From Actinomycetota bacterium (GTDB lineage: Bacteria; Actinomycetota; Nitriliruptoria; Euzebyales; JAHELV01): a stretch of 48,215 bases of DNA. The stretch lies in NCBI GenBank assembly GCA_019347695.1, contig JAHWKT010000005.1, positions 1 through 48,215 of the forward strand, given 5' to 3'. The position numbers were made by a program, and so were the translations under genes. The notes beneath the pieces were generated by a model. That model was not told the origin of the DNA and did no database searches. It saw only the letters and a program-made list of their open reading frames with translations. Below, piece by piece: positions 3,555 to 48,181 of this stretch (positions are counted from its first letter, which is position 1; each line of letters starts with the position of its first letter).

Positions 3555-4663
3555 CCGCGCGGTACCTCGTCCTGCGGACGTCGCAGGACACCGCCGGGGT
3601 CCCCGACCGCTGCCGGCAGTGGGCGCAGCGGGTCCGCGCCGACGTCGCGGTGCTGGGTCCGATCGGACCGGATGACCTGCGCGCGCGACTCGAGCACGAC
3701 GACTGCGCCGGTGCGGTGCTCGAGCTCGCACGTGTCGCCGACGACGCCACCGTGGCCGCCGCCATCGCGCGCGCGGCCTACCCGGTCGTGGCCGTCAGCC
3801 GCGAGGCAGTGGCCGGTGACCGCAGCGTCGTGGAGGCGGCGTGCGCCCACGTCTTCGCGGGTCGCGGTACCGGCGGGTTCGTGTGGGGCCTGTGGCATCT
3901 GCATGCCCTGCACGAGCACCCACCCCGGACCATGTCGTACGGTCCCCATCCGGCACAGGTCGCCGATCTGCGGACACCCGTCGACGCCGCCCGGCCGGTG
4001 GTGGTGCTCGTCCATGGCGGGTTCTGGCGCCACGAGTGGGAGCGCGACCTGATGGACGGCCTCGCACTCGACCTGTCGCGCCGCGGCTACGCGACGTGGA
4101 ACGTCGAGTACCGGCGGGTCGGCGAAACGGGCGGTGGCTGGCCGCAGACCGGTGACGACGTGGTGCGCGCGGTCACGGCGCTGACGATCCTCGCCGACGA
4201 CGGTGTCGACCTCGAACGGGTGGTGCTGCTGGGGCACTCGGCCGGGGCGCAGCTCGCGTTGCGCGCGGCCGCCGAGCTGCGCGACCGGGGGCGCCCGCCC
4301 GCCCTGGTCGTCGCGCTGTCGGGGCTGCTCGATCTCGGGTCGGCTGCCAGCGGCGGCGTCGGCTGGGGATCGGTGGAGGCGTTCGTGGGTGCCGGTCCCG
4401 AGGAGGACCCCGAGCGCTACCGCGACGCGGCGCCGATCGCCCACCTGCCGCTCGGGGTTGCGCAGCTGCTCGCCCACGGCACCGCAGATGCCCACGTGCC
4501 GCCCGCGCAGAGCGCGGGGTACGAGGACGCTGCCCGGACCGCCGGCGATCACATGGAGCTGGCCCGGCTCGACGACGCCGACCACTTCGCGCCGATCGAC
4601 CCGACGTCGACCGCGTGGGCGACGATCGCCGCCGCAATCGAGCGCAGGGTGCCGCCGGGCTGA
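3551..4663 (+). CDS. Alpha/beta hydrolase (HGGxW, arylformamidase/kynurenine formamidase-like) with a degenerate N-terminal type II dehydroquinase-like domain
   Basis: HGGFW, NVEYRR, GHSAG, HGTAD, DHF in the C-terminal part; first ~120 aa follow the AroQ pattern; ATGA overlap with ridA. Confidence 0.8.
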   Translation: MTARYLVLRTSQDTAGVPDRCRQWAQRVRADVAVLGPIGPDDLRARLEHDDCAGAVLELARVADDATVAAAIARAAYPVVAVSREAVAGDRSVVEAACAHVFAGRGTGGFVWGLWHLHALHEHPPRTMSYGPHPAQVADLRTPVDAARPVVVLVHGGFWRHEWERDLMDGLALDLSRRGYATWNVEYRRVGETGGGWPQTGDDVVRAVTALTILADDGVDLERVVLLGHSAGAQLALRAAAELRDRGRPPALVVALSGLLDLGSAASGGVGWGSVEAFVGAGPEEDPERYRDAAPIAHLPLGVAQLLAHGTADAHVPPAQSAGYEDAARTAGDHMELARLDDADHFAPIDPTSTAWATIAAAIERRVPPG

Positions 4664-8518: not shown

Positions 8519-8990
8519 CGGCCGGCGAGGTCGTCCATGATCGACGGCTCGATCAGGACGCTGTCGACCGCGTGGACGACGGCGTTCGACGCCGCGATGT
8601 CGGGCTCGACCACCGTCGAGTCCTCGAAACGAACACGCCCCCGTCGACGGTCGCCTCCACGAACCCGCTGACCGTGCGCACCCGACCCTCGGTGACCTCC
8701 TCGGCGGGCAGCATCGACAACACGATGTGCTCGTCGAGCAGCAGACCGTGCAGCGTGTCGAACCACCCGTCCTCGTGGAGCACGTCCAGCACCAGGCCGC
8801 CCTCCGGCTCACCGGTGACGACGAGGTCGGCGACCATGCCCTTCATGAAGTTGGGCTCGCCACGCACGGAGGGACGGTCCTCGAGCCGAGCCCCGCCGCC
8901 GCGTCCTCGAGCATCTGCTGGCGCCACTCGTCGATGTCCGCATCGTCGGTCATCGTGTCGTACAGCGCGTAGCGGCCCGGCGTGTCGAAG
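8515..8990 (-). pseudogene. Fasciclin-domain protein remnant (frameshifted, internally deleted)
   Basis: LDVLHEDGWFDTL and VVEPDIAASNAVVHAVDSVL (FAS1 H2 motif) in different frames. Confidence 0.65.
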
Positions 8991-8999
8991 ATCATCGGG

Positions 9000-9260
9000 C
9001 CGACCCGACGGCCCGACCCGACGTCGACGGCCACGACCGTCGGTGCGTCCACCTCGTCGGGCACGTCGACGCGCCGGACGCCGTTGTGCGTGGCGATGGC
9101 GAGCAGCGTTCCGTCGGGACTGAACGCCAGGCCGCCGGACCGGGCGCCGGCACCCTCCAGCGGTGCACCGATCCGTCGGCCGGTGTCGCCGTCGATGACC
9201 ACGACGGCACCGTCGTCGGTCTGCACGGCCGCCAGTGCGCCGTCGGGCGAGATGGCCAGC
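9000..9260 (-). pseudogene. WD40/beta-propeller protein fragment
   Basis: GLAFSPDGTLLAIA and DGDTGRRIGAPL repeat motifs; no proper start or stop. Confidence 0.55.
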
Positions 9261-9264
9261 GCCG

Positions 9265-9359
9265 CCGTCGATCATCCGCCGGTCCACGTCGGCCATCTGT
9301 GCCGAGGTCAGCCGGCCGATCGCCGCGGCGGAGACCGCGGGGTACACGTCGGTGCGCAT
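9265..9359 (-). pseudogene. NAD(P)HX epimerase (YjeF-N/NnrE) N-terminal fragment
   Basis: LTSAQMADVDRRMID resembles the TxxQMxxxD start of YjeF-N; truncated after about 30 aa. Confidence 0.45.
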
Positions 9360-9852
9360 GTCCATACTGTGCGCCGCCGCCGCGCGCGTCACACCTGCGC
9401 GCTACACCATGACACGTGGCGTCGGCCCCCATGGCGCCGACAGGCGAGGGAATCACCGGGGGTGAGCGGACGGTTGTCCCCAGGCACGCCCCGGACAGCG
9501 AAGGGCGCCGGCATGCCCACCACGATTCGCTCGTCATCGGCGCCGACCGAGGTCGTCGAACAGGCGCTGGGCGCCCCGTGAGCACCGACACCACACCGCC
9601 AGCGCGCGAGTTCCTCGCATCTGACATGGTGCTGCCCGAGATGGCCGAGATCGGCTCCAGGCGCGCAGCGGAGTACACGTCGGCCAGGTGCTGGTGCTCA
9701 GCGGCGCGCTGCTGTTCACCGAGGTCAACGTCGAGATGCCGGCGACCCTGCTGTCGGGCGCGCTGGGCAACTTCGCGGAGCCTGGTTCCACGAAACACGC
9801 GGCGGACCGGCTCCGCCGGGCAGAGACTCGTGGTCGGGATGGCGGCGCGACG

Positions 9853-9884
9853 CACGAAAGCCCCGCCGGGGCGGGGCTTTCGTG
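9853..9884 (-). terminator. Intrinsic terminator downstream of cspA
   Basis: CACGAAAGCCCCGCC / GGCGGGGCTTTCGTG inverted repeat. Confidence 0.85.
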
Positions 9885-9943
9885 GAGTTGGGTAGGTCGT
9901 GACACGGTGCCTCACGGCGGGGCACGACCACGCACAGGTGCAG

Positions 9944-10147
9944 CTAGAGCGCCTCGACGTCGCTCGCCTGCGGGCCCTTCTGCCCTTCGGTGACCGTGTA
10001 GCTCACGCGCTGCCCCTCATCGAGGCTCTTGTATCCCGAGCCCTTGATGGCAGAGAAATGAACAAACAGGTCGTCGCCGCCGCCCTCTGGGCTGACGAAA
10101 CCGTAGCCCTTGTCGGCGTTGAACCACTTGACCGTACCTTCTGGCAT
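9944..10147 (-). CDS. cspA: Cold-shock protein
   Basis: [14 protein letters not shown] (RNP1), LFVHFSAI (RNP2), GQKGPQA; 67 aa. Confidence 0.98.
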
Positions 10148-10327
10148 GCATATTCCGATCTGGAACGCACATACGCCGGGTTACTCCGTGTGAGAAATTG
10201 GACCCCGACCGGGTGCGCGAAGCACCCACCTTAGCGGATGCGACGGCATGTGCGGTCCTCGTCACCCCTGGCGGGGTGGTCGCATGCATCTGCGACGTGG
10301 GCCCAGGCGGAGCCGGAGCTCGGCCGA

Positions 10328-11074
10328 TCATGCGCCGTCGGGTAGTACGACCCGCCCGCGGCGGTCCAGGACGCCGAAGCAGTAGCCGCGTCTGCGGATG
10401 CGGCGGATCAACCGTGGCAGGGCCGCCATGGTCGCCTGCGAATCCTCCTTGTCGTGCAGCAGGATCACGGCACCCGACTCGAGGCGCCGCATGACCGAGC
10501 GGATGATTTGCCGCGGCGTTCGCGACGCGTCCCAGTCGTGCGTGTCGACGGTCCACAGCACCGTGCGGAACCCCATGGCGCGGACGGTGGCACGTACGCG
10601 CTTGTTCACCTTGCCGTAGGGCGGACGCAGGAGGCGACCGCCGGCGACACGCGCACGGGCGAACGCGCGCTGCGAGCGGCGGATCTGCCGTCGGATCCCA
10701 GCGTCGGACAGGCTCGTGAGGGCGGCATGGTCGTAGGTGTGGTGATAGATCCTGTGGTCACCACGCGCCAATGATCGTGCCCGCCCGGGCCGTGCCGCCA
10801 CCGATCGTCCGGTCATGAAGAACGTCGCCTGCACACGCTCCTCGGCGAGGATGGCGGCCAGTCGCTTCGAGTTGGCGTCACTCGGGCCGTCGTCGAACGT
10901 GAGCGCCACCGGGCCGTTCGCGCAGGTGCGAGCCCGCCCGGGTCCCCGTGTGGACGCGGGATCGCGCTCGGCTGGCGCAGAGCCGACGGCCAGCGCGCCG
11001 AGCGCGACGGCCACGATGACCGCGATCGTCGCCCAATGCACCGCCAGGCGGGAACCGGCCAGCGCCACCCGCAT
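10328..11074 (-). CDS. Secreted or membrane-anchored polysaccharide deacetylase (CE4/NodB)
   Basis: TFDDGP, HTYDH, RPPYG, DTHDW, ILLHD; N-terminal hydrophobic segment. Confidence 0.92.
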   Translation of the reverse strand: MRVALAGSRLAVHWATIAVIVAVALGALAVGSAPAERDPASTRGPGRARTCANGPVALTFDDGPSDANSKRLAAILAEERVQATFFMTGRSVAARPGRARSLARGDHRIYHHTYDHAALTSLSDAGIRRQIRRSQRAFARARVAGGRLLRPPYGKVNKRVRATVRAMGFRTVLWTVDTHDWDASRTPRQIIRSVMRRLESGAVILLHDKEDSQATMAALPRLIRRIRRRGYCFGVLDRRGRVVLPDGA

Positions 11075-11216
11075 CCTCCTCCGCGACCCGGGTGCTTCGA
11101 GTCGATGCGCCGCTTGCGTACGTAGCACCTACGCAGGTGCGCCGAAGGTAGCAACGATCGTCGGCCGCACCGGGGAACCCCTACCGCGGCCGACGATCGC
11201 CGCCGGATGCTGCTCG

Positions 11217-11570
11217 TCAGGCGTCGTGCTGCGCGCCGTGGGCGGCGTCACCCTCCGCGACGCTGTCGGTGTGCTCGGCCGCGCCGGGCGGACCCGCAGC
11301 GATGACGTCCTGCGGGGCCTGCGACTCGTACGAGGCGAGTTGTCGACGAACATCTTCGCGACGTCGGCCGCCCTCGCGTCGTAGTCATCCGGGTCCTGCC
11401 AGGTGCCGCGGGGCTGCAGCAGCTCGGACGGCACACCGTGGCACTCCGTCGGCACCTCCAGTCCGAAGATCGGATCGGTGACGTACTCCACGTCGTCGAG
11501 CGCGCCGGAGATCGCCGCGCGCACCATCGCGCGTGAGTGCTGGATCGACAGGCGACTGCCGGTGGTGGTG
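11217..11570 (-). pseudogene. pckA: PEP carboxykinase (ATP) C-terminal fragment
   Basis: GSRLSIQHSRAMVRAAISGAL...DPIFGLEVP...PSELLQPRGTW...MFVDN; 5' part missing, frameshift near 11340. Confidence 0.85.
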
Positions 11571-11581
11571 CCCGGTGATCC

Positions 11582-12470
11582 ATGGCCGGCTCTGAGGTGT
11601 CCGGACCGCCGTCGCCGGACGTGGTGGATCCGCGCCGCGGACGCCGAACGCTCCCCCCGACTTCGGCGCCTTCTGGGCCGCGACGATCGCCGCGCTGGAC
11701 CATGTGCCGTTCGACGTTCGGCGGACGACCCAGCCAGGTCTCACCCCGGCACCCACGCGCACGCCATCTCGTTCCGGTCGTGGCAGCGGCGTCGGATCCA
11801 CGGGTACGCACTGACCTGGGACGACGACGAGCCGTGACCGCTCATCGTCCATGCGCACGGCTACCGTGCCCAGGTCACGCCACGCGTCGAGTGGGTCCGC
11901 GCCGGCTGCCACGTGCTCGGGTTCGACATCCGGGGCTTCGGGCGGTCCGTCGACGCGGTTGTGTCACCGTCGCCCGACGGCTGGCTGCTGACCGGTGCGC
12001 GCCGCCCGGAGACCTCGGTGCTGCGCGGTGCGGTGTGCGACTACGTGCGCGCGCTGCAGGTCGCGTCCGCCCTGGGGTGACGACGCGGCGTCTCGTCTGC
12101 CATGCCGTGAGCCTGGCCGGTGGGCTGGCGACCATGGCCGAGGCGGTGGCCGGTCGCGCGGACCTGCTCGTGCTCGGCGTCCCGACGTTCGGATGGGCCG
12201 AGGGGCGTCGCCTGCTCGTGGAGCGCGGGTCGGGCGCGGAGGTCGCCGACTTCCCGGCGCGCCATCCCGAGTATCCCGAGGACGACCTGCAGGCCGTGCT
12301 GGCCTACTTCGACGCCGCACTGTTCGCGCCGGCGATCCGCTGCCCCACCCTGCTCGGGATCGGCCGGGTCGACCGGGTCGTGCCGTCGGCGTGCGTGCGC
12401 GCCATCGCCGCACGGCTGCGCGCGCCACACGAGATCATGACCGTTCCCGTCAGCCACGATTCCGGACCGG
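11582..12470 (+). pseudogene. Acetylxylan esterase/cephalosporin-C deacetylase (CE7) pseudogene
   Basis: DFGAFWAAT, HAHGY, FDIRGFG, SLAGG, LAYFDAALFAPAIRCPTL spread over several frames, with in-frame stops. Confidence 0.8.
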
Positions 12471-12830
12471 CGACGCGGGCCAGCGTGTCGAGCGGCATCG
12501 TCAGGACCAAGCAGGCGCTGTCGGTCCGTACGGTCGCTGTCGCGCGCCCCGGCGGCCGCAACCCCGACCACCCGAAGATCCGCCCAGGCTGGTCCGTCGT
12601 CTCGACGACCAGGTCCCCAACGCCAGCGAACTCGACCAACGTGGCGATCGTGCCGCTGACGAGCACGACGAGCTCAAACGTCACCGCCCGTTGGCGCAGC
12701 AGAATCTCACCCTGGGCCACGTCGTGCGGCGTGAGCTGCCCCTGCACGTGTGCGAGCAGATCGTCGGGCAGCGTCACCGCGCCCGGGATGAGCGCTGTCA
12801 GTGACAGCACGGCGGACGGCTCGTGGAGCA
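12460..12830 (-). pseudogene. Cyclic-nucleotide-binding domain protein fragment
   Basis: GEILLRQ...LVSG...PGRIFGWSGL...RATATV; collides tail-to-tail with the esterase remnant. Confidence 0.65.
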
Positions 12831-12865
12831 TCCGGTGATCGTGTCCCGCCAACGACCCTGCGGGC

Positions 12866-12881
12866 AAGGACCTTCGGCCCT
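12866..12881 (+). promoter_or_regulatory. DosR/DevR-like box
   Basis: AAGGACCTTCGGCCCT resembles GGGACn4GnCCC; 50 bp upstream of a PNPOx-family gene. Confidence 0.5.
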
Positions 12882-12930
12882 GTCGCGTTGCCCCGATTGT
12901 GCGACGCTCGCGTCCGTCAGGGAGACGCCG

Positions 12931-13340
12931 ATGTCCGAGACCGAGATCGCGCTGGTGACGCTGTCACCCGACGAGTGCCGCGCCCTGCTGGTCACCCACC
13001 GCCCCCGGCTGGGCCGACTGGTGTTCGTCGACGACGGTTGGCCGCTGGCGTTGCCCATGAACTTCGCGGTGCGCGATGAAGCCATCTACTTCCGGACCGC
13101 GCCGGGCGCAAGCTCGACGCCGCCCTCCGCGCCGACCGGGTGGCGTTCGAGCTCGACGACGTCGACGAGGTCTGGGAGGACGGGTGGAGCCTGCTGGCGT
13201 TCGGGCGTCTGCAGGTCGTCACCGACCCCGACGAGCTCGCCGAGGCGCGCCGCCTGCCACCACGACCGTGGGCGGCGGGTGACACGCCCTACCACCTGCG
13301 CATGGACATCGAGAGCCTGTCGGGGCGACGCATCACCTGA
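12931..13340 (+). pseudogene. Pyridoxamine 5'-phosphate oxidase-like protein (frameshifted near 13105)
   Basis: LSPDECRALL, GRLVF, PMNF, FRTAPG, then VAFELD, GWSL, SGRRI in the next frame. Confidence 0.85.
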
Positions 13341-13401
13341 CGCACCGACCACCTGCGCGGTTTCGGTAAAGGTCGCGTCGCGGCGGCCGACGAGCGTCGC
13401 C

Positions 13402-13701
13402 ATGATCACCAAGCGCTTCTTCAAGACCCGCGACGACGTCGAGGTCACCTTCCAGATCGACGCCCACGGCGCCGAGTCGGCCGCACTGGTCGCCGACATC
13501 CACGACTGGCGGCCGCAGCCCATGACCCGCTCGGCCCGCGGCCGCGGGCCGTTCAGGCTGAAGCTCCGCGTCCCCAGAGACGGGTCGATCCAGTTCCGCT
13601 ACCTGCTCGACGGCGTCAGGTGGGAGAACGACGACGCCGCAGACGCCTACTGGCCGAACGCACTCGGCACGGACAACAGCGTGGTCGTCTTCGGCGGCTG
13701 A
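13402..13701 (+). CDS. Isoamylase early-set/CBM48-like glycogen-binding protein
   Basis: MITKRFFKT, VTF, FRYLLDG, WENDDAAD, NSVV; 99 aa. Confidence 0.88.
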   Translation: MITKRFFKTRDDVEVTFQIDAHGAESAALVADIHDWRPQPMTRSARGRGPFRLKLRVPRDGSIQFRYLLDGVRWENDDAADAYWPNALGTDNSVVVFGG

Positions 13702-13729
13702 TCGATCACCTCCGGCGCCCTCCTACAGC

Positions 13730-13764
13730 GGACGTCCACCGTGCACATGACACGGTGGGCGTCC
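13730..13764 (+). terminator. 14-bp hairpin downstream of the CBM48 gene
   Basis: GGACGTCCACCGTG-N7-CACGGTGGGCGTCC with one G:U pair. Confidence 0.6.
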
Positions 13765-13835
13765 ACGACAGCGACGCCGACCATTGCCCGCCTGTGCTCG
13801 GTCGCAGGCGGAACGGCAAGCGTCCCGCCGACAGC

Positions 13836-13849
13836 GAGACCTTGGCCCC
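13836..13849 (+). promoter_or_regulatory. Second DosR/DevR-like box
   Basis: GAGACCTTGGCCCC upstream of the ppsA remnant. Confidence 0.35.
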
Positions 13850-13929
13850 ACCGGGTGGGTGGCATGGTCGGTCATGGTGCGGACGTGGGCGAACGCCCGC
13901 CTCAGACGACGCCGACTGGAGCAGCGGCC

Positions 13930-14530
13930 GTGGTAACACTCGAGCAGCGGGCAACCGACCAGATCATGTGGTTCTCGCAGGTTGACACCGAGGATGTCGG
14001 TCTCGTGGGCGGCAAAGGAGCCAACCTGGGCGAGCTCACGGGTGCCGGCTTCCCCGTACCCGACGGCTTCGTGGTCACCGCGGCGGCCTATCTGGCGGCG
14101 ATGGAGCGCGGCGGGGTGCGGGATCGTCTGCGCGAGGTCGCCGCCGGCGTGATGTCCCCGACCCGGACGCGCTCGCCCAGGCGTCTGGAGCAGCGCAGCA
14201 GTTGGTGCGCTGCTCCGGTACGCCAGAACAGCTGCGCGAGGAGATCGTCTCCGGCTACCGGAAGCTCGGCGACGACGTCGCCGTCGACGTCGCCGTCCGC
14301 TCGTCGGCGACGAGCGAGGACACCGCCGGCACGTCGTTCGCCGGGATGAACGGGACCTTCACCAACGTCGTCGGGCCGGACCAGCTGGTCAGCCGTGTGA
14401 TCGACTGCTGGGCGTCCGCTATGGTCAGCGCGTGATCGCCTACCGAGACCGGCACGGCATGGACGAGGAGCCCGCGATCGCGGTCGTCGTCCAACGGATG
14501 GTCGACAGTGAACGGTCCGGCGTCCTGTGA
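13930..14530 (+). pseudogene. ppsA: PEP synthase N-terminal fragment
   Basis: VGGKGANLGEL, PVPDGF, VAVRSSATSED, SFAG, IAVVVQRMV; several frameshifts, truncated. Confidence 0.88.
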
Positions 14531-14580
14531 CCGGCGATGACGCCCAGCCAACGCGGCGGTGAGCGGTGAGATCCAGCAGC

Positions 14581-15591
14581 ATGCGGGCGTGGATCGTCAA
14601 GCGGCCCGGCCCGATCGACGAACAGCCGTTGCAGCTGATCGAACGCCCGATACCAGACCCGGCACCCGATGAGGTGCGCGTGCGGGTCTCGGCCTGCGGG
14701 GTGTGCCGCACGGACCTGCACCTCGCCGAGGGCGACCTGGCACCACGCCATCCCGGTGTGGTACCAGGCCACGAGGTCGTCGGACGCGTCGACGCGCTCG
14801 GCGCGGACGTGCAGCGCTTCGCGGTCGGCGACCGGGTCGGTGTGCCGTGGCTGCGCTCGACGTGCGGCGCATGCCGCTTCTGCGCCACAAACGCGGAGAA
14901 CCTCTGCGTACAGCCGCGCTTCACCGCGTGGGACGCCGACGGCGGGTTCGCCGAGTGGTGCACCGTCCCCGCCGCCTACGCCTACCACCTGCCGGACGCG
15001 TTCGACGACGAGCACGCCGCCCCGCTGCTGTGCGCGGGCATCATCGGCTTCTGCGCATTGCGCCTCGCCGACCTCGACCACACGGCCACCGCCGCCCGTC
15101 GACTGGGCATCTACGGGTTCGGCGCCAGCGCGCATCTGGCCGCGCAGGTCGCGCTACACCAAGGCGCCACGGTGCACGTGATGACGCGCGATGCCGACGC
15201 ACGCACGCGGGCCCTCACCCTGGGCTGTGCGTCGGCCCAGGGCGGCGACGACGCCCCACCCGAGCCGCTGGACGCCGCGGTGCTGTTCGCTCCGGTCGGT
15301 GCACTGGTGCCGGTGGCACTGGAGGCACTGGATCGGGGCGGCACACTGGTCATCGCGGGCATCCACCTGTCCGACGTGCCGGCGCTCAACTACGAGCGAC
15401 ACCTGTTCTACGAGCGGCGGGTCGTCTCGACGACCGCCAACACGCGGGCCGATGGCGAGGCGTTTCTCCTGCTCGCCGCCGCGGTGCCCATCCGCGTAAC
15501 CACGACCCGCTACCCCTTCCATCAGGCGGACCATGCGCTAGCCGATCTCGCGCACGACCGTGTCAACGGCGCGGCGGTACTGGTGCGGTGA
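14581..15591 (+). CDS. Zinc-dependent alcohol dehydrogenase (AdhP-like)
   Basis: CGVCRTD, PGHEVVG, CGACRFC...C structural Zn site, APLLCAG, GIYGFG. Confidence 0.95.
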   Translation: MRAWIVKRPGPIDEQPLQLIERPIPDPAPDEVRVRVSACGVCRTDLHLAEGDLAPRHPGVVPGHEVVGRVDALGADVQRFAVGDRVGVPWLRSTCGACRFCATNAENLCVQPRFTAWDADGGFAEWCTVPAAYAYHLPDAFDDEHAAPLLCAGIIGFCALRLADLDHTATAARRLGIYGFGASAHLAAQVALHQGATVHVMTRDADARTRALTLGCASAQGGDDAPPEPLDAAVLFAPVGALVPVALEALDRGGTLVIAGIHLSDVPALNYERHLFYERRVVSTTANTRADGEAFLLLAAAVPIRVTTTRYPFHQADHALADLAHDRVNGAAVLVR

Positions 15592-15676
15592 CTCCCGCGA
15601 CCCGCTCTCGCCGAGCACCCCAGTGGACACCGTCCACCGCGGCAGATCACGCCCGCCACCGAGCGGGAGACACGGC

Positions 15677-15911
15677 CTACATGCCGAGATCGGCGGCATC
15701 CTGGCCCAGCCAGACGTGACCGAGTCCGGTCGGGACAAACCATCCGTGGGGCACACCCTCGGGGACGTCGATGCGGCGACCGGTGACATCCTGGTGCACC
15801 AGCCGAACGAACCGTGACTTGTCGCCGCCAGCGAACGGGTGCAACGGCATCTCGCGTAACCGCGCCAGATGCTGTGGGTCGTCCACCTCGGTCAGCCGCC
15901 CACGCACCATG
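15677..15911 (-). pseudogene. Second PNPOx-like protein, C-terminal fragment
   Basis: [11 protein letters not shown]...PFAGGDKSRFVRL...VTGRRI. Confidence 0.65.
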
Positions 15912-15949
15912 ATCGCGGCCCGGTGGTGCTCCCGGTCAACTACGTGCCC

Positions 15950-16234
15950 GTGGCGTTCCTGTCGATGGCCGCGGCGCTCGGCGTCGGCAACGGCGCGGTG
16001 TTCGCGCTGGTCGGCACCCGCGCACCGGCGACCAAGGTCGGCGCCGTCACCGGCTTCGTCGGTGCGGCCGGCGGCCTCGGCGGCTTCTTTCCCCCGCTGG
16101 TCATGGGTGCCGTCTTCGAGGCCACCAGCTCCTACGCCATCGGGCTGGCGCTGCTGTGCCTCACCGCGCTGACCGGAATGGCCTACACCTACCGGCGGTT
16201 CGCCCGCAACGCCAGTTCCGCAGCGCCAGGGTAG
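15950..16234 (+). pseudogene. narK: Nitrate/nitrite MFS transporter C-terminal fragment
   Basis: [31 protein letters not shown] nitrate signature; 5' part missing. Confidence 0.82.
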
Positions 16235-16313
16235 TGACCGCTGACGAACGGCAACCCCGTGATGCCCGTGCCTGCAGTGCCAACAGGCTCGCGCCGGTGC
16301 GGTTGCTCTCTGA

Positions 16314-16835
16314 TCACGTGTCCTGCTCCGGGCCGGTCGCGGACGCATCCCGCTCGTCGACCTGCTCCTCGGCTCCGGATGACGCGTCGTCGGCGGGGCC
16401 GGACACGGGCTGATCGAGCGGGTTGATCCACCGGACGTCGAAGAACCGGGCGAAGTCGGCGTCGGCGGAGACCACTGCGACCCCGTGATCGATCGCGAGC
16501 GCGGCAAGCGCCGCATCGGTCACCAGTGGCCCGCGGACCCGGTGGTTGCGCACCAGGCGGCCGAGCACGCCCGCGTACGCGGCGGTGGGCTGAGGCACCC
16601 ACGCACGCGGTGCGGCAAGCCAGTCTTCGACCTGCTGCCACGCGACCTCGGGCTCCAGCGGTTCGGCGAACGCGCGCGGGTTCGTGGCGATGCGCAAGAA
16701 CGCGGCGACGGTCTGCCAGGGGAATCCCACCCTGGTCGAGCCGTTGAGCGCATCGACCAACCATGTGCGCGCTCGGTCATGATGCGGATCGTCGGAGTTG
16801 CGGGCGTACAGCAGGATGTTCGCGTCGAGCAGCAT
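16314..16835 (-). CDS. vapC: VapC PIN-domain toxin with acidic C-terminal tail
   Basis: LLDANILLYA, FLRIATNP, VTDAALAALA, SADADF, WINP. Confidence 0.93.
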   Translation of the reverse strand: MLLDANILLYARNSDDPHHDRARTWLVDALNGSTRVGFPWQTVAAFLRIATNPRAFAEPLEPEVAWQQVEDWLAAPRAWVPQPTAAYAGVLGRLVRNHRVRGPLVTDAALAALAIDHGVAVVSADADFARFFDVRWINPLDQPVSGPADDASSGAEEQVDERDASATGPEQDT

Positions 16836-27975: not shown

Positions 27976-28165
27976 ACACATCAGTCCCGACCGCGAACTC
28001 GCGGCCGCACTTTCCGAGTAGACGGACTGGGTGGTCGAGCACACTGGGCGTCGAGCGTGCATCGCTCGGCGTATGAGGCTCCCGCATGCTGCGACGACAT
28101 CGGGGCACCGCTGCGTCGCCAACGCCGACCGCTGCGCCTGCGGCTGGCTGCGTTGGCGCTCCGGC

Positions 28166-28422
28166 TCACGTCGACAGCACGGTGCCCTGTACCGGCCGAT
28201 GATCCGATCGGCGGTCACGAAATGGAGGTTGTCGACCCTCGCTAGCGCGACGTCGAACTCAAGACGTCCGAGCACCGTCTTGATCTCGGCCTCCCACAGG
28301 CTCGCCGCGCTGACGAACACCATCGCGGAGCCGTCGGCGATCGCAGTGCGCGCATCTCGCGACAGCCGCGGATCGTCCACCAGCCACCACAGGAAGGCGT
28401 GGGTGTTCAGCAGCAGCGACAT
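28166..28422 (-). pseudogene. vapC: Degenerate paralogue of the vapC at 45297-45683
   Basis: MSLLLNTHAFLWWLVDDPRLS...SAASLWEAEIKT nearly identical; first catalytic Asp changed to Asn, central ~40 aa deleted, 1-nt deletion near the 3' end. Confidence 0.88.
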
Positions 28423-28475
28423 CAACCGCTCTGATTCGTCGGTCGCCAACACAGACAGAACCCGCGAGCGCATGG

Positions 28476-28799
28476 TCAGTAGACGATGTCGAGCGCGTAC
28501 CGCAGCGCACGGTCCAAGTCGGCCCGCACGACCTCCCCGAGGTGGCCGACGGGCTCGCCGTCGAGCACACTGACCGGCACAGTGATCACGCTGTCACAAC
28601 TGATGACGCACCGGTTGCCAAGACCCTGCTCCGGTCCGATCCGCACTTCGGAGCGGATGCCTCGGATCGTGCGGGTGATCGGCGCGCAGGTGACAGACGT
28701 CAGCACGCCGAGGGCGGCGTCTCGCGTCAGCACGCACACGGGACGTCGTCCCGTGTGCGGTCCGAGATCAGCCCAGTAGATGTCGTTACGGGCTACCAC
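28476..28799 (-). CDS. mazF: MazF/PemK family toxin
   Basis: RNDIYWADL...RRPVCVLTR, VTCAPIT, ISCD, ALRYAL. Confidence 0.92.
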   Translation of the reverse strand: MVARNDIYWADLGPHTGRRPVCVLTRDAALGVLTSVTCAPITRTIRGIRSEVRIGPEQGLGNRCVISCDSVITVPVSVLDGEPVGHLGEVVRADLDRALRYALDIVY

Positions 28800-29712: not shown

Positions 29713-30025
29713 ACCGCGATGGTACGTCCGTTCGAGATCGGCGCGGCCGCCAGGGCTCGGTGCCAGTTCGTGGTTGCGATCTGCCTTGCGAGCGAGACAC
29801 CGCGTCGCGACCCGGCGCGCGCCGCCATCCACATGGCGCCGTACGGTTCAGGGCGTACGCGGTCTCGCCATATGCGACACCCGGCTGGTCGCCGACGGGC
29901 ATCGCCCCAGCGTTCGTACTGCATCTGGACCCCTATCGGGTCTTGCCCGGGCAACTGCTCCGCGTACGCTCAGGCAGTACAACGCGCTGTGCCTGAGGTC
30001 GCGGTGCCAGTCGAAGGGAAACGCG

Positions 30026-30895
30026 ATGGACTTGATCGTGGTTGGAGTGGACGGGTCGGCGCCCGCGGACACCGCACTGCGATGGGCGGCACGACAGGCC
30101 CGGCTCACCGGCGCCGAACTGGCTGTGGTGTACGCCTACGGACGGCGCCCCGGCCGCGCGAGGTCGGAAGATGGCAGCCGTGCGCTGGCCGACAAGCTGC
30201 TGACGTCGATCACGAAGCGCAACAGCGACGTGCTCGAGCACGTGACATGGCACCTGCACGCGGAGTCGGCCGGGCGAGGCTCACCCGCGCGCGTGCTGAT
30301 GGACGAGGCGGAGCAGGCGGACCTCATCGTCGTCGGCTCCCGCGGCCGCGGCGGATTCGGTGAGCTGCTCCTTGGCTCGACCAGCTACCGACTGGCCGGG
30401 CGCACCAGGACCCCCGTCGTCGTGCTCCGCGCGGACCTGCCGACCGGCGCCGATGAGCCCCCGTTCCCCGGGGATGTGGTGGTGGGCGTCGATGGCTCGG
30501 ACACCGGTGACCGCGCGCTGCTATGGGCTGCCGCCGAAGCACGACGTCGCGACGTGACGCTGCACGTCCTGCATGCACAGCCGCTGCCGACCCACTACCT
30601 CTACGGGATGGGCTCGGTGCCCAACATCGACAAGGAACGGGCGCTTATTGTCGAGGAGGGCGAGAAGATCATCGAGCGGGCGCTGACCCGCGCACAAGAC
30701 GCGCTCGACGACATCGAGATCGCCAGGCACTGTCTCGTGGAACCCGTCGCCAATGCGCTGGTCAGCTTCGCCGGACGCGAGAACCTGATCGTCGTCGGCA
30801 GCCGGGGACACGGCTATGTCAGCGGGTTGATGCTCGGAGCGACCAGCCACCAGGTACTCCACCACGCCCAAGCACCGGTGGTCGTCGTGCCGTAA
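30026..30895 (+). CDS. Tandem-domain universal stress protein
   Basis: Two IVVGVDGS...VVGSRGxG...LGS/AT...PVVV repeats. Confidence 0.95.
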   Translation: MDLIVVGVDGSAPADTALRWAARQARLTGAELAVVYAYGRRPGRARSEDGSRALADKLLTSITKRNSDVLEHVTWHLHAESAGRGSPARVLMDEAEQADLIVVGSRGRGGFGELLLGSTSYRLAGRTRTPVVVLRADLPTGADEPPFPGDVVVGVDGSDTGDRALLWAAAEARRRDVTLHVLHAQPLPTHYLYGMGSVPNIDKERALIVEEGEKIIERALTRAQDALDDIEIARHCLVEPVANALVSFAGRENLIVVGSRGHGYVSGLMLGATSHQVLHHAQAPVVVVP

Positions 30896-31246
30896 TCACC
30901 GGCCGAGCCCGACAGCAGCCACCATCCATCATGTCGAGCGCCACACCGTGACGGGCGTCCTGCTGCTCGTCACCGGCGCCGCCAGCGCCGGACTGGCCAT
31001 CCTCGGTGCCCGCTGGGCACTCGGGTTCCTCGCGCTGCTCGGCGTCCTGGCCGTGCCCGTGGGCCGCACCCTGCCCGACGTCAGCGCGTCGCCCAGCTGA
31101 TACCTGTCCCACCCACGTACCGGGCCACCCTTTGCCACCGCGACGAGGCCGTCGAGGTGGGTGCGGGCGATCACGTGGCGATCCGCCCCAGCGTCACTGC
31201 TCGCACGCGCGAGGACGCCGTCGTCCTGCTCACCGCGGCTGCGGGT

Positions 31247-43985: not shown

Positions 43986-44393
43986 TCAAGCGACCACCGG
44001 CGTCGGCGGTATGACGAACGCACAGCGGGGTCCGGCTGCGCCCATCAACCGCCGGTCGAGCGTAGCGACCGGCACACCAAGTATCTCAGCAACCGCCACG
44101 TACCACGCGTCGTACGCCGTGACGTTGTAGCGCAGCTCCCAGACCCGCGCGCCGAATGGCTCGTAGGGGTACAGCTGCCACGACATGCGTCGCAGGTCCT
44201 GGTGCGCCGACGCCGCTCGAGACCGATCGATACCCCCCGCGAGCTCACTTCGCCGCAGCAGGTTGGCCGCTTCGACCGGGCACAAGTGCGGCGCAGCCAG
44301 CGGCCCACGCGCCAGTTGCTGCTCAGCCCACCGACCAGTCGTGCCGGAGTCGATGAGCGCGGCCACCACCACCGAAGCGTCGACCACAAGCAC
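43986..44393 (-). CDS. vapC: VapC PIN-domain toxin
   Basis: LVVDASVV, EAANLLRR, WELRYNVTAYDAWYVAVAE, TLDRRL. Confidence 0.93.
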   Translation of the reverse strand: MLVVDASVVVAALIDSGTTGRWAEQQLARGPLAAPHLCPVEAANLLRRSELAGGIDRSRAASAHQDLRRMSWQLYPYEPFGARVWELRYNVTAYDAWYVAVAEILGVPVATLDRRLMGAAGPRCAFVIPPTPVVA

Positions 44394-44396
44394 TGA

Positions 44397-44630
44397 TCAG
44401 GCCCGGTCCTCGTCGCGCCAGCGAAGCAGGTCGTCCACGTCGAGGACCGCGGGGCTTGCCTCCTTGCGCCGGCGGATCTCGTCGAGCAGTGTGTCCACGT
44501 CGGGACGTGCGGCAAGGTCGGTGAGATGTTGCCGCAGGTACTGCTGGAGCGAGCGGCCGCTGCGCGCAGCTCGACTGGCGAGCTCGTCACGTACGTCGTC
44601 GGGAAGGTCCCTGATCGTCACGCTTGTCAT
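44397..44630 (-). CDS. FitA-like RHH antitoxin
   Basis: VTIRDLPDDVRDELASRAARSGRSLQQYLR; TAGCAT-N6-ATG. Confidence 0.9.
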   Translation of the reverse strand: MTSVTIRDLPDDVRDELASRAARSGRSLQQYLRQHLTDLAARPDVDTLLDEIRRRKEASPAVLDVDDLLRWRDEDRA

Positions 44631-44758: not shown

Positions 44759-44956
44759 CTACCCGTCGTCACGTGGCTGGCCAACGAACTGTGCGACGGT
44801 GTCGGGCTGGTCTTCCATACAGAAGTGGCCGGCGTCGGCGATGACGTGCCGGTCGGCGCCGGGGATGTCGTCGGTCAGACGGTGGGCACAGTCGACCGGC
44901 ATGTCTACCGTGACGTTGCCGAAGGTGACCGGCGCACCACGGGCAGCCCAATCCAT
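44759..44956 (-). pseudogene. Alpha/beta hydrolase C-terminal fragment
   Basis: IPGADRHVIADAGHFCMEDQPD. Confidence 0.7.
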
Positions 44957-45019
44957 GCCTGTCTCAACGTAGCCAACGTATCTAGCAGATGGCTACGTCG
45001 ACAACCCGCCCGATGCGCT

Positions 45020-45036
45020 GCAGGTCGCTGACCTGC
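45020..45036 (-). repeat. Hairpin just downstream of the tRNA fragment
   Basis: GCAGGTC-gct-GACCTGC. Confidence 0.6.
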
Positions 45037-45044
45037 GGTTTTGC

Positions 45045-45088
45045 GGTGGAGCTAAGGGAATCGAACCCCTGACCTCTTCCATGCCATG
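45045..45088 (-). tRNA. Partial tRNA-Ala(GGC), anticodon loop to 3' end only (att core)
   Basis: Minus strand CATGGCATGGAAGAGGTCAGGGGTTCGATTCCCTTAGCTCCACC; GGC anticodon, TTCGA loop; no 5' half upstream. Confidence 0.88.
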
Positions 45089-45101
45089 CACACGCCGAAC
45101 C

Positions 45102-45250
45102 GTCCAACGCGTCCGGCAGCGTCCCATGGAGGCCACCCACGTCCGATCGTATCCGACGGGCGCGCAGCGCAGAAACCGCGTAAGCAAGACGTATTGCGTC
45201 CAATGCGTGATCGCCGGTCCGGCGACGTCGCTCGCTGTCCCGTGACGTCC
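45102..45250 (+). repeat. Two ~10-bp-periodic GTCC arrays
   Basis: GTCC or variant at 45102, 45111, 45121, 45131, 45141, 45151 and 45198, 45207, 45217, 45227, 45237, 45247. Confidence 0.75.
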
Positions 45251-45296
45251 CAGCGACCGCCGGTGGCTACGTTGCTGGCTACGTCGGGCGCCCGAC

Positions 45297-45683
45297 TCAC
45301 GTCGACAGCACGGCGACCCCGTACCGGCCGATGACCTGGTCGGCTGTCACGATGCGGAGGTCGTCCACCATCGCCTGCGCGACCAGCATCCGGTCGAAAG
45401 GATCGTTGTGATGCGGCGGCAACGTCGCAGCGGTGCGGGTGTACCGACCGGTGATCGCGAGCTCGGTGAAGCCGTTGCCCACCACCTCGTTGGCGAGGTC
45501 GACGGTGTCGACGTCGAGCTCGAGGCGTCCGAGCGCGGTCTTGATCTCGGCCTCCCATAGACTCGCCGCGCTGACGAACGCCATCACCGAGCTGTCGGCA
45601 ATCGAGGCGCGGGCCTCTGGCGACAGCCGCGGGTCGTCCACCAGCCACCACAGGAACACGTGGGTATCCAGCAGCAGCGACAT
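45297..45683 (-). CDS. vapC: VapC PIN-domain toxin
   Basis: LLLDTHVFLW, SAASLWE, LPPHHNDPFDRMLVAQA, VTAD. Confidence 0.94.
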   Translation of the reverse strand: MSLLLDTHVFLWWLVDDPRLSPEARASIADSSVMAFVSAASLWEAEIKTALGRLELDVDTVDLANEVVGNGFTELAITGRYTRTAATLPPHHNDPFDRMLVAQAMVDDLRIVTADQVIGRYGVAVLST

Positions 45684-45752
45684 CAACCGCTCCGACTCGT
45701 CGAAGCGTGTCGTATGGTCACCGCGACCCGTGGAAGCGGGGATGCCATCGCG

Positions 45753-45980
45753 TCAGCCGCGGAAGGCGTCGACGAGTTCGTCGGGCAACGGATCGTCGAA
45801 GTCCTCAGCGATCCGGATGCACCCTCGCAGGCTTCCCGGTTGACGCTCAGGCGCTGCGTGCGCCACAAGGCGGGCGATCGGCCGGTTGTTGCGGGCGATT
45901 ACGACTTCCTCACCCTGTTCGACGCGCTCGAGCAACCGTGACAGGTGGGTCTTCGCTTCGTGGACGTTCACAATCGTCAT
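45753..45980 (-). CDS. Phd/YefM family antitoxin
   Basis: VNVHEAKTHLSRLL...GEEVVIAR...PIARLV...DFDDPLP; TAGACT-N6-ATG with GACCA-GACTA-GACTA repeats. Confidence 0.93.
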   Translation of the reverse strand: MTIVNVHEAKTHLSRLLERVEQGEEVVIARNNRPIARLVAHAAPERQPGSLRGCIRIAEDFDDPLPDELVDAFRG

Positions 45981-46068
45981 GAACTTAGTCTAGTCTGGTC
46001 ATGCAAGGAGGGCAATCGGGCTGCCGTGGACGCGGAGGCCCAGCGCGACCCAACCAGGTCCTCCCACG

Positions 46069-46082
46069 CGCTGGACGTTTCC
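46069..46082 (+). repeat. Direct repeat CGCTGGACGTTTCC, copy 1
   Basis: Identical to 48182-48195; flanks also similar (CTCCC...GACT). Confidence 0.75.
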
Positions 46083-46127
46083 ACGGACTACTCTCGACTG
46101 TCCCGATACATCCCGGCGCGGCGCTGG

Positions 46128-46907
46128 TCAGCGCACGACGAGTTCGCCGGCCATGTCGGGGGCGTGGGGGATGCAGTAGAAGCGGTAGGTGCCGGCGTCG
46201 GCGGGGAACGTGACCCGTTGGGTGGCGCCGGGCGGGACGTTGAGGTCGACGCCGAGCTCGTCGATCGTGAATGTGTGCCGCGTAGGGTCGTCGTTGGTGA
46301 CCGTGACCGCGACCTTTCCGCCGTCGGTGGTGATGGTGCGGGTGTCGAACTGGAAGTCCTTGGTGGTCAACTCGATGTCACCGGGCTGGGCTGCGACGCT
46401 GTCGATGCGGGCGGCCGCCACGATCGATACGGCGGTCGCAGCAACCAGCACAACGACAGCCGTTGCCGCAACCCCAGTCGCGGGTCGCGGCGATCGGCGG
46501 GCAGGCTGTCGGGCCTGGCGGAACGCTGGGACGGCCGCGATGCTGCCGGCAAGGGTCGCCAGGGTGAACAGCGTCAGTGGCAGGAAGTCGCCGGGGGTCT
46601 CGGGATGGGTGAGCGCGTCGGCGAGGAACGGCGCGCTCGACACAAGCTCGGCGAGCAGCACGACGCCGAGCACCACGACGCCGGCCCGCCGCCACCGCCA
46701 GACCACCAGCAGGCCGGCGACGATCGGGGTGGCCATCGCCAGGAAGAAGCTTTCGATGCTGCCGGCGATGATCATGGCGATCACGAACGATGCGATCGTG
46801 GCGCAGCCCGCGGCGACAAGCAGGCTGAGCCATCCGACGCGTGGCTGTCTGCTCGACACGACGGGGGCGGTGCGGGTGGGTTGATTGGTGTGGCTGGTGG
46901 TGGTCAT
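46128..46907 (-). CDS. Membrane protein with C-terminal cupredoxin domain
   Basis: About five TM segments, then HTFT...GTYRFYCIPHAPDM (His, Cys, His, Met type-1 Cu ligands). Confidence 0.82.
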   Translation of the reverse strand: MTTTSHTNQPTRTAPVVSSRQPRVGWLSLLVAAGCATIASFVIAMIIAGSIESFFLAMATPIVAGLLVVWRWRRAGVVVLGVVLLAELVSSAPFLADALTHPETPGDFLPLTLFTLATLAGSIAAVPAFRQARQPARRSPRPATGVAATAVVVLVAATAVSIVAAARIDSVAAQPGDIELTTKDFQFDTRTITTDGGKVAVTVTNDDPTRHTFTIDELGVDLNVPPGATQRVTFPADAGTYRFYCIPHAPDMAGELVVR

Positions 46908-46935
46908 CGTCACGTCTTCTGAGGTTCTGTGGGCG

Positions 46936-47366
46936 CTACGCCGCGGTACCCGCGGGACGTGCGCCGAGCTGCAACAGCACGCTGTGGTGTCGACGGCGGC
47001 CGAGTACTCGCCGATCCGGCCGTCGTCGCCGACCCGGTTGACGTCGATGAGCTCGAACGCGACCTGTCGCCCGGTGGGTGCCAGGCCGAGGAGCTCGCCG
47101 GTGTGGGTGCCCCGCACGGTGCTGCGGGTGACGATGCGGTCTGCCTCGACGATCTGGTCCTCGACGATCACGTAAAGATCGGGAAACGCGCGACGCAATG
47201 TCGTGACCGTGTTCTTGAGACCCGCAAGGCCGGTGCGCTCCGGCGGTGTCGAGCTGTGGTCGAGGTCGTCGCACGCGCTGAGCTCGTCGACGACGGGCAG
47301 GTCGCCTTGGGTCCACACCTCCTCGACGAGACGGCGGGCCTGGCGCCTCATCCACTCCGGTGACAT
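46936..47366 (-). pseudogene. SnoaL-like ester cyclase (frameshift near 46985)
   Basis: EEVW, AFPDL, GTHTGELLGLAPTGR; AGGAG RBS; VLLQLG tail in a shifted frame. Confidence 0.82.
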
Positions 47367-47391
47367 CGGCGACTCCTGGAAGTCGCGAGCG

Positions 47392-48097
47392 TCACGCCAC
47401 GGGCGAGCGCGTTGGGTCCGTGCGCTGTCGTGCGGGCTCCGAGACGACGGACGGCGGTCCGGTGGCGTGACGACGGGCAGGTGTGGGATGGCGCACCCGA
47501 GCGCGAGCACTGCGAGGAACGACCAGTAGTACAGCGCGACCCACGCGTCTCGGGGGGTCGTCACGGCCAGCTCGGGGCCACCGAAGCCGGTGACCGTGGG
47601 CGCCCAGGTCGGGATCGGCGTCAGTGCGATCGCGCCGCTGACGATCCGTCCCCATAGCGGACCGCGGCCCGACAGCGCGTAGCCGCCCGCCATGCCGAAC
47701 AGCGGCACGCCGATCGCGCCGCCGCCCAGCCCATCGGCGAAGAACTCCTCCAAGCCCGCCATGGGGCCGCCGGGCGCGGTGGCCACCCCGTGGACCAGCA
47801 CGCCGGCGAACAGCAGCGGCGCCGTGGCCAGCCACCGCCAGCCTCGCCGGCCGCCGGTGCGGCGCAGGTGCTCGGCCCAGCCCAACAGCGCGCCGGTCAG
47901 CACACCGGGCAGCAGGATCCACACGAACGTGCCGACCCACTCGACACCAGACGCGGGCCCGGCGATCTCCACCATGAACCCGCGCAGCCCCGCAGCCCAC
48001 GCCAGACCACACACCCCGCCAACAGCGACCAACGCCACGAGCCCTTGTGTCGCAGGCCACGCTCACGCGTTCCGTCGCGGGTCGACGTCGATCGCAT
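47392..48097 (-). pseudogene. Gly-rich membrane protein, frameshifted near its start
   Basis: GLAWAAGLRGFM, ILLPGVLTGALLGWAE, GGYALSGRG; GGAGG RBS before ATG 48097 is out of frame with the body; 3' end uncertain. Confidence 0.6.
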
Positions 48098-48181
48098 CAT
48101 CCACCTCCAAGGCCGCGCTCCGACCACCGACCGCAGCGTGCGCCACCGCGGGACCGTGCGCCACGACGAGGACTCCCCGTT

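Follow-up and report, generated by a model that had tools for sequence, protein, structure and literature searches.

How does the 3' half of a tRNA-Ala gene come to lie between two sets of arm-type repeats in a stretch of DNA that carries no integrase? The site lies in a draft actinobacterial genome (215 contigs, 3.48 Mb, 70% G+C, 87.7% complete) on contig C51, all 48,215 bp of which were analysed and are referred to here as the window. Lambda-type attP sites (lambda, mycobacteriophage L5) have a core flanked by arm-type repeats on both sides, and accessory sites are expected between the P arm and the core. A reading of the window made from its letters alone (the sequence-only reading) had described a complete attP-like site at the tRNA-Ala half and had proposed that it was the junction of two tandemly integrated elements, an excised circle, or a non-autonomous unit mobilised in trans. 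The results below make it probable that the site is an internal attachment junction, produced by successive site-specific insertions into the 3' half of tRNA-Ala(GGC). The labels int_A, int_B, P and P' are our own. Genes were called with our own codon-usage ORF picker, trained on the source genome, and the genomes compared were draft MAGs, whose assemblies break at these repeats.

The site is a unit of ~350 bp whose parts follow one another, in the sense of the tRNA, as P arm, spacer, core, inverted repeat and P' arm. Its features and those of the surrounding window are listed here from right to left.

46128..48038, minus strand: cargo of the P side, a single long ORF with membrane, SnoaL and cupredoxin parts (Pfam)
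45753..45980, minus strand: Phd/YefM antitoxin gene (Pfam PhdYeFM_antitox, E 2e-12)
45297..45686, minus strand: VapC (PIN) toxin gene, its stop 10 bp from the P arm (Pfam PIN, E 5e-11)
44949..45295, minus strand: whole attP-like unit, comprising P arm, spacer, core and P' arm (profile match, E 2e-98)
45264..45286, minus strand: P arm, two tandem arm repeats 12 bp apart, reading CGACGTAGCCAGCAACGTAGCCA in the tRNA sense (motif scan and alignment)
45089..45263, minus strand: P-side spacer, 175 bp, containing GGAC(G) motifs and a GGTCGGATACGATCGGACG block, both conserved (conservation profile)
45046..45088, minus strand: core, the part of tRNA-Ala(GGC) that runs from the anticodon loop to its 3' end, lacking 1 nt of the T stem (match to the C167 tRNA)
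45020..45036, minus strand: short inverted repeat past the tRNA end (GCAGGTC/GACCTGC), inside a conserved AACCGCAGGTCAG motif (folding and conservation)
44965..45000, minus strand: P' arm, with one reverse, one degenerate middle and one forward repeat (motif scan, alignment and sequence reading)
44759..44956, minus strand: fragment immediately past the P' arm that resembles an alpha/beta hydrolase C-terminus (weak Pfam match to Abhydrolase_6, E 0.0057, below the curated cut-off)
43986..44630, minus strand: FitA-like RHH antitoxin (44397-44630) and PIN toxin (43986-44393) of the P' side (Pfam)
28476..28739, minus strand: PemK/MazF toxin gene (Pfam), whose congener orthologue (L033, 5710-5973) adjoins an intact P arm
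28127..28430, minus strand: eroded P-arm repeat (TGGCTGCGTTG at 28145), and a degraded VapC paralogue of the gene at 45297-45686 (pairwise match and sequence reading)

A profile built from 11 copies of the unit aligned to 44949-45295 over profile positions 13-369 of 374, and no further unit was found in the window (next-best match E 1.1, all filters off). The core (45046-45088, minus strand) is, but for a single deletion, identical to the tRNA-Ala(GGC) gene that the genome carries on contig C167 (complement 1-74), from position 31 of that gene to its 3' end, and thus matches its chromosomal target as an attP core should. The half first read as 44 bp is present and is 43 nt long, because one C of the T-stem run is absent. 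A functional tRNA gene would show a complete cloverleaf recognised by tRNA finders; no tRNA gene was called in the window by ARAGORN, and Rfam returned no tRNA match even at E<=1. Exact copies of TGGCTACGTYG number four in the window (44965(-), 44990(+), 45264(+) and 45276(+)), two on each side of the core as had been claimed, and alignment with other copies added a fifth, degenerate one at about 44976-44984. The core is accordingly flanked by repeats of one motif, unlike its own sequence, two on the P side and three, one of them degenerate, on the P' side, where the unit family has the consensus GAACGTAGCCA-NN-TGGCTACGTTGGCTACGTCG. When one mismatch was allowed, 7 copies were found in the window against 1.55 expected, and none of 100 shuffles gave 7. 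The window copy carries two lesions, the 1-nt core deletion and the degenerate middle P' repeat.

The hairpin noted after the tRNA end has a stem of 7 bp (45020-45026 paired with 45030-45036) and its inverted repeat is conserved across units. Its folding energy is ordinary (z = -1.1; 25 of 200 shuffles fold equally well), no T run lies 3' of the stem and no terminator was found there by a terminator scan, so that it is no canonical terminator. The spacer GGAC(G) motifs and the GGTCGGATACGATCGGACG block are putative sites for accessory proteins; GGACG motifs related to those of the spacer are also present in Acidimicrobiia units.

Pfam searches bore out the toxin-antitoxin (TA) operons described on the two flanks, Phd/YefM with PIN to the right and FitA-like RHH with PIN to the left, and the recombinase domains PF00589, PF00239 and PF07508, tyrosine or serine, were without match on C51, as the sequence-only reading had found for the 48 kb. 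The right-hand flank recurs elsewhere in parts: the block from the Phd gene through VapC to the P arm (46001-45253) has copies, 84-95% identical, in L040, L140 and L093, where the DNA upstream of it differs, and the homologues of the SnoaL/cupredoxin ORF are three separate genes within a cassette bounded by two units in L034.

In the source genome TGGCTACGTYG has 11 exact copies, and a tRNA-Ala half is present at each of the three loci to which 9 of them belong. Two of these loci are further copies of the unit: the one on contig C181 is complete, with an 87-bp deletion in its spacer, and the one on contig C130 (85.5% identity over 242 bp) ends with its contig, exactly at the core end. The core of tRNA-Ala(GGC) is present four times in the genome and two contigs end in it; the complete tRNA-Ala(GGC) gene stands at the very start of contig C167. 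It had been proposed that a full tRNA gene, an integrase and more arm repeats be sought to the right of the window. Nothing lies there, since the window is a whole contig, and the full tRNA gene and additional arm repeats were instead located on C167 and on C181 and C130, respectively. That the unit is itself a repeat explains why the assemblies of these genomes break at tRNA-Ala.

The unit is present in all four congeners (1-5 copies each); outside the genus, among 61 genomes searched, essentially the tRNA part alone was matched. A 20-mer of the P arm was found at 12 places in the five genus genomes, all five of which contain it (0 for a reversed-pattern control), and 43 other genomes of the order gave just two matches, each with 2 mismatches (G010, G026). 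Unpublished genomes (G026, G029, G032, G034) were counted only in the congener/61-genome search, in the 20-mer scan of the order and in the search of the order for int_A described below. Public collections, scanned with the pattern, yielded 22 stretches from genomes and 71 from metagenomes, and the 11-copy profile detected the unit or part of it in 16 and 67 of these, respectively; five genome stretches lying within known congener loci were left out of later counts. The matching genome records are MAGs of Nitriliruptorales, Actinomycetota, Acidimicrobiia or Acidimicrobiaceae. The six genome stretches that hold the 20-mer without the unit (Polyangiaceae, Granulicella and others) were treated as chance matches. 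Among viral contigs, the single stretch with the P-arm pattern (L178) proved to be a 28-nt arm match with no unit, and no relatives of int_A were found. ARAGORN calls of 'tRNA-Met' or 'tRNA-Thr' over the spacer and core of C130, L034 and L137 were discarded as false positives on the unit.

The arrangement of these copies relative to one another identifies the unit as a seam. Ten contigs carry two units each, 0.8-7.8 kb apart, and the two units are in direct orientation in all ten pairs. Nine complete cassettes were recovered, all from sequences of the window's lineage, with lengths of 826-7775 bp and 2-9 called genes each. Similarity to integrases (15 integrase queries plus int_A) was absent from eight of the nine, the lone exception being a 35-residue remnant of int_B in the L084 cassette. 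L033 has two units 2.8 kb apart that enclose an RHH antitoxin, a PIN toxin and a 302-residue protein, and L034 has two units 6.6 kb apart that enclose the homologues of the SnoaL/cupredoxin ORF and a 908-residue regulator. The start of an array, in attL form, is seen in L135, which reads from a full tRNA-Ala(GGC) into a P' arm, then through an integrase-less block of 5.3 kb with RHH and PIN genes at its end, and on to a P arm with core. The cis layout of the window site thus recurs as same-orientation seams anchored at a tRNA gene, and it separates cassettes in congeners and in metagenome contigs alike, as the proposed junction of tandem elements would require.

A census covered 62 distinct cores. 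Upstream of the core lay a P arm in 53, the 5' half of the tRNA in 4 and a contig cut in 5, with no other arrangement, counts that are biased because most metagenome loci were ascertained through the P-arm pattern; downstream lay a P' arm of type A in 41, of type B in 7, other sequence in 6 and a cut in 8. In a whole-unit search of the five genus genomes, every core without the 5' half of the tRNA was preceded by a P arm or cut. The window contig itself holds one unit and a decayed remnant at ~28.13 kb. The second boundary of the window copy is unseen because the genome is a draft of 215 contigs, and its tandem layout is extrapolated from its relatives and should be read as likely by comparison with them.

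Genes next to the unit follow a rule. A P arm is present in 67 units; in 48 of them a gene was called no more than 300 bp upstream, and in 42 of the 48 that gene points at the P arm. Matches to Pfam-confirmed representatives identified 36 of the 42 as toxins of the PIN (14), PemK (7) or AbiEii (15) type, so that a toxin pointing at the P arm is the neighbour in 36/48 units with a called neighbour. The median distance between the toxin stop codon and the unit is 3.5 bp, with a range of -22 to +76. This position directly after toxin genes, together with the small conserved inverted repeat, could be taken to mean that the unit is a dispersed repeat with another role, for instance in the regulation or termination of TA operons, and that it merely resembles an att site. 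Such a role is very improbable, given that 48/61 cores match the tRNA 3' half exactly, that attL forms begin at full tRNA genes, that the orientation is always that of the tRNA, that an integrase gene adjoins the same arms and that no terminator signature was found.

Sequence conservation within the unit bears on selection for its cis sites. Across 34 distinct full-length units, median pairwise identity was 80% (range 72-94%), and conservation was 97% or more in the core, in the repeats of the P arm, in the P' arm and in a set of spacer GGAC(G) motifs. The 48 cores identical to the tRNA half come from 61 that could be scored, and the window copy is among the 13 that differ. The near-invariance of arms and core despite divergence of ~20% argues for selection on the cis sites and is hard to explain otherwise. 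In Mantel tests on the same 34 units, the two halves of the P side correlated with r = 0.20 (p about 0.01), and for the P halves against the P' side r was 0.02 (p 0.42) and 0.10 (p 0.12); the direction is weakly suggestive of crossing-over at the core.

A tyrosine integrase, int_A, adjoins the window-type arm motif beside tRNA-Ala(GGC) in three Acidimicrobiia/Actinomycetota MAGs (G061, G064 and G065). All three run from a full tRNA-Ala(GGC) through P' arm repeats to int_A, which starts about 50 bp past the repeats and reads away from the tRNA, and a P arm with core follows 6, 30 and 23 kb downstream, respectively. Pfam Phage_integrase (PF00589) is matched by two int_A copies (E 1.5e-15 and 1.3e-16) and by the C-terminal part of the G061 copy, which has a frameshift. 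The cognate integrase expected next to an attP site is therefore found beside the same arm motif in these three MAGs and is missing from C51. On this arrangement, int_A is the integrase type linked to the window's arm motif. Traces of int_A also follow a unit in L094 (38% identity over 246 residues, gene truncated) and in L110 (74% over the first 35 residues, then contig end).

The same arms are found at a different tRNA. In G063, a full tRNA-Val(TAC) is followed by four units with window-type arms around tRNA-Val halves, with blocks of 0.6-2.3 kb between the units and between the tRNA and the first unit. The blocks encode a 111-residue protein, a 653-residue cyclase-domain protein, a pair of 59 and 105 residues and an HTH protein. 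The array is complete and integrase-less and has chromosomal genes on both sides, and no int_A relative was found in the G063 genome at E<=1e-15.

No close int_A was found in the five genus genomes (88-97% complete), where the best matches were distant integrases with 25-28% identity, and no int_A-like gene above 37% identity was found in 48 genomes of the order. These absences, the truncated int_A remnant of L094, the lesions in the core and P' arm of the window copy and the decayed remnant at about 28.13 kb are what would be expected of a pure fossil, that is, of past tandem insertions whose integrase has been lost and whose units persist because they are young or hitch-hike with TA genes. 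Such a history is a serious possibility that falls somewhat short of being probable. It accounts poorly for arms, core and P' arm that are near-invariant in 34 copies of units differing by ~20%, which is hard without selection, and the MAGs from which int_A is absent are incomplete, with assembly breaks that fall exactly on these repeats. Since no int_A was found in the source genome, the window copy is probably dormant unless a helper arrives; we put its being currently active at roughly one in three.

A second integrase belongs to the same locus. The gene int_B, about 28% identical to int_A, lies beside tRNA-Ala(GGC) in the congener G003; in the congener locus L042 it adjoins the true tRNA-Ala(GGC), convergent with the tRNA. 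An HTH_17 excisionase-like gene (Pfam; xis, our label) lies upstream of int_B, and 3-4 copies of a repeat, TGGACCCAWT, lie inside its own 3' end. A type-A P arm and core directly precede intact int_B with xis in L105 and L114, and precede int_B remnants in L107, L085 and L043. The source genome has its own int_B on contig C171, 87.5% identical to the L042 gene, with homology that stops at the core boundary. These placements raise the question of whether int_B acts on the units, all the more as a P arm with int_B-type repeats was absent from all loci examined, among which no contig reaches the far end of an int_B element. That int_B serves the units is nevertheless unlikely: the repeats next to it are of a different motif, it is distant from int_A, the C171 gene is not beside a core in its own genome, and hybrid junctions are expected wherever two unrelated elements share one target.

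The window as a whole was compared with the congeners. Positions 1-4650 form one syntenic chromosomal block in 4/4 congeners, and the stretch from 4.7 to 40 kb is a non-syntenic mosaic whose matches are spread over many contigs in each congener. An excised circle or plasmid, the second of the origins first proposed, was rejected on the basis of this chromosomal synteny and of contig ends that do not overlap. Three TA remnants lie at 26.7-29.1 kb, namely a VapBC pair, a VapC pseudogene and a PemK gene; the congener orthologue of the VapBC pair (L014) shares a contig with an intact unit and lies about 0.5 kb from its P' arm. The remnant at ~28.13 kb was recognised by pairwise match and sequence reading (window 45274-45383 against 28143-28251, 82%; 28248-28441 against 45509-45702, 87%), and the unit profile does not score there (E 19). 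The window fits an old, eroded array in which the unit at 45 kb is the best-kept seam, in line with the accreting cargo array suggested earlier.

Because the core is a repeat, an assembly artefact was considered, in which a full tRNA gene or two unrelated regions had been misjoined at the core. The genome has four core copies, two contigs end in the core, and the likely source run has Logan contigs that end at 45075 and resume at 45079, leaving the break inside the core with both flanks covered at about 8-9x. The joints listed in the source-run contigs have short sides (20-35 letters) and resemble repeats or other organisms. A misjoin is still hardly credible: the P-core-P' layout is found in dozens of independent assemblies, the window copy has private variants, and one source-run contig runs without gaps from 43333 into the core and another from 45128 to 48121, at similar depths (7.95 and 8.99).

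The junction produced by successive insertion would have formed as follows. The right block (Phd-VapC and the SnoaL/cupredoxin ORF) would end with its own P arm and the left block (the hydrolase fragment, FitA-VapC and what lies beyond) would begin with its own P' arm; both, being integrase-less, would depend on an integrase supplied in trans. The arm repeats would be those of a family of elements whose int_A sits right after the P' arm by the tRNA in other Actinomycetota. The N-terminal domain of the integrase is predicted to bind the TGGCTACGTYG repeats and its remaining domains to bind near the anticodon stem-loop, where the strands would cross; strand exchange is placed near the anticodon loop because identity to the tRNA starts there. 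A circle carrying P-core-P' could enter any existing core, and its entry into a core already flanked by the arm of another element would give exactly such a P-core-P' seam. Any block between two cores might leave again as a circle, given an integrase and probably an excisionase in trans, and for most blocks such loss would be penalised by the TA pair at their P end. Mobilisation of the blocks in trans as non-autonomous units is plausible on this layout. A bolder version holds that integron-like gene shuffling is at work in at least two classes of Actinomycetota with a phage-type integrase, where cassettes consist of a full attP and usually a TA pair, where a single integrase supplied in trans would carry out their insertion, excision and reordering at a tRNA gene, and where the arms have stayed fixed while the core was switched from Ala-GGC to Val-TAC; this we regard as doubtful.

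The site is lambda-like in its 2+3 arm layout, with two repeats on P and three on P'. It differs from the lambda attP in that no integrase gene is adjacent, the site is chromosomal rather than phage-borne and binding to the arms is putative. Integron arrays are likewise ordered rows of small, promoter-poor blocks in the same orientation, separated by recombination sites. The relation to integrons is one of analogy and not of membership: the separators here are ~350-bp duplex attP-like units with a tRNA half rather than folded attC sites, the integrases are ordinary PF00589 proteins beside tRNA genes and apparently not of the IntI type, and there is no attI/Pc platform. TA cassettes are common in chromosomal integrons (PMC13108822).

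Closer parallels are found among elements that accumulate at small-RNA and tRNA genes. The ssrA islands of Dehalococcoides lie several in tandem downstream of one small-RNA gene and are separated by repeats of its 3' end, and of those treated in the cited sections 16 have an integration module and 15 do not, the latter being suggested to be cis-mobilizable (PMC3146451). That system differs from the present one in having a serine recombinase and 20-bp repeats, with no arm sites and no TA link reported in those sections (PMC3146451). Successive insertions of Prochlorococcus tycheposons at one tRNA are described as pushing older elements inward, with a partial tRNA between neighbouring elements and with degraded remnants and partial tRNAs scattered through the islands (bioRxiv 10.1101/2020.12.28.424599). 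The Prochlorococcus elements, unlike the blocks here, carry integrases and often replication genes, and the cited part of that account makes no mention of arm-type sites (bioRxiv 10.1101/2020.12.28.424599).

Streptococcal ICE-related CIMEs keep their att sites and have lost their integration and transfer genes, according to the cited part of the source, which also describes chimeric internal att sites, even between elements whose integrases are <30% identical (PMC5704250). Integration genes are absent within the window blocks, as they are in CIMEs, and the hybrid junctions of type A and type B found here match such chimeric internal sites (PMC5704250). The window site is best read as the equivalent of an attI between CIMEs, and tandem accretion with CIMEs as its closest known case. 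The present arrays differ from CIMEs in that many small blocks (0.8-7.8 kb) stand in a row, each seam with both full arm sets, in that most blocks end in a TA pair, in their hosts (Nitriliruptorales and Acidimicrobiia) and in that no conjugation genes were seen; mobility has been demonstrated for CIMEs and is putative for the blocks here.

A limited and general literature search found no description of such arrays in Nitriliruptorales or Acidimicrobiia, which is weak evidence that none is in print. Growth of an island by successive insertion at a tRNA is already known, and the arrays described here are an unusually tidy, TA-rich form of it. What seems new is the combination of intact seams with both arms, very small blocks that are often a TA pair only, the rule that a toxin gene runs to the P arm, and a shared arm motif. 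The toxin rule spans at least three toxin families, and the one arm motif is common to two classes and to two tRNA cores.

Islands beside tRNA genes are commonly put down to an accumulation of decayed prophages and integrative elements. The preserved seams make the rules legible here: a fixed five-repeat arm layout, a tRNA-half core, strict orientation and a toxin ending at the P arm. The unit profile is a tool with which such arrays can be mapped in metagenomes, and the rules make three questions testable, namely whether integrase-less blocks are mobile in trans, whether TA pairs are retained at their position by punishing loss, and how a single arm specificity comes to be joined to different tRNA cores.

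Units of the attP-like type were also found at a second tRNA target, in altered arrangements and with an interrupted core.

Variant units in other Actinomycetota genomes
9875-16524 of locus L149 (genome G063, contig C29): units with tRNA-Val(TAC) halves, the arm motif being the same as at tRNA-Ala
10237-10383 of locus L152 and 3539-3686 of locus L154 (both genome G065): facing P-arm repeat pairs
6948-9992 of locus L038 (congener G004, contig C46): unit interrupted in its core by an insertion sequence encoding a 431-residue transposase

The L149 array consists of a complete tRNA-Val gene followed by four units, and lacks an integrase. Here the core target has switched from tRNA-Ala to tRNA-Val(TAC) with arm specificity retained. 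A 13-bp core end is present in two copies at the ends of this array and of that at L148, and one such two-copy form also lies in L130. At L153 (genome G064, contig C1, ~10150-10300) the core end (CATCGCCTCCACC) stands in four tandem copies, joined directly to an int_A gene (the integrase linked to the arm motif) with a truncated N-terminus. Repeated or aberrant exchanges may have left these tandem repeats behind as scars. At both G065 loci the two P-arm repeat pairs head towards each other with ~120 bp between them, an inverted arrangement that none of the other arrays showed.

Past the insertion sequence of L038 lies an integrase of a third kind (426 residues), the 3' end of which overlaps a tRNA-Thr(TGT) gene. 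At L040 (congener G002, contig C59, ~400-440), the 700-bp interval separating a P' arm from the Phd-VapC toxin-antitoxin pair contains a piece that looks like the T arm, acceptor and CCA at the 3' end of a different tRNA; this piece could be the vestige of a different attachment site. In the window's own genome, the 3' end (~95 bp) of int_B, the second integrase at tRNA-Ala(GGC), recurs at two contig ends (C171, 5912-6010; C71, 11610-11714), which hints at additional type-B P' arm copies left unresolved by the assembly. The same genome carries three consecutive tyrosine recombinase genes on a 3.2-kb contig (C55, 717-3050), in the layout of a recombinase-in-trio element.

The P-side cargo of the window (46128-48038) is a single 636-codon ORF uniting membrane, SnoaL and cupredoxin parts, the counterparts of which are encoded separately at L034, by three genes (248, 153 and 245 residues); the ORF is either a fusion or a read-through of lost stops. 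Window positions 29872-31097 were 98% identical to contig C494 of congener G001, whereas the remainder of the region showed 70-89% identity to congeners, and this disparity in identity suggests that the segment was recently transferred or is a mobile piece common to both genomes.
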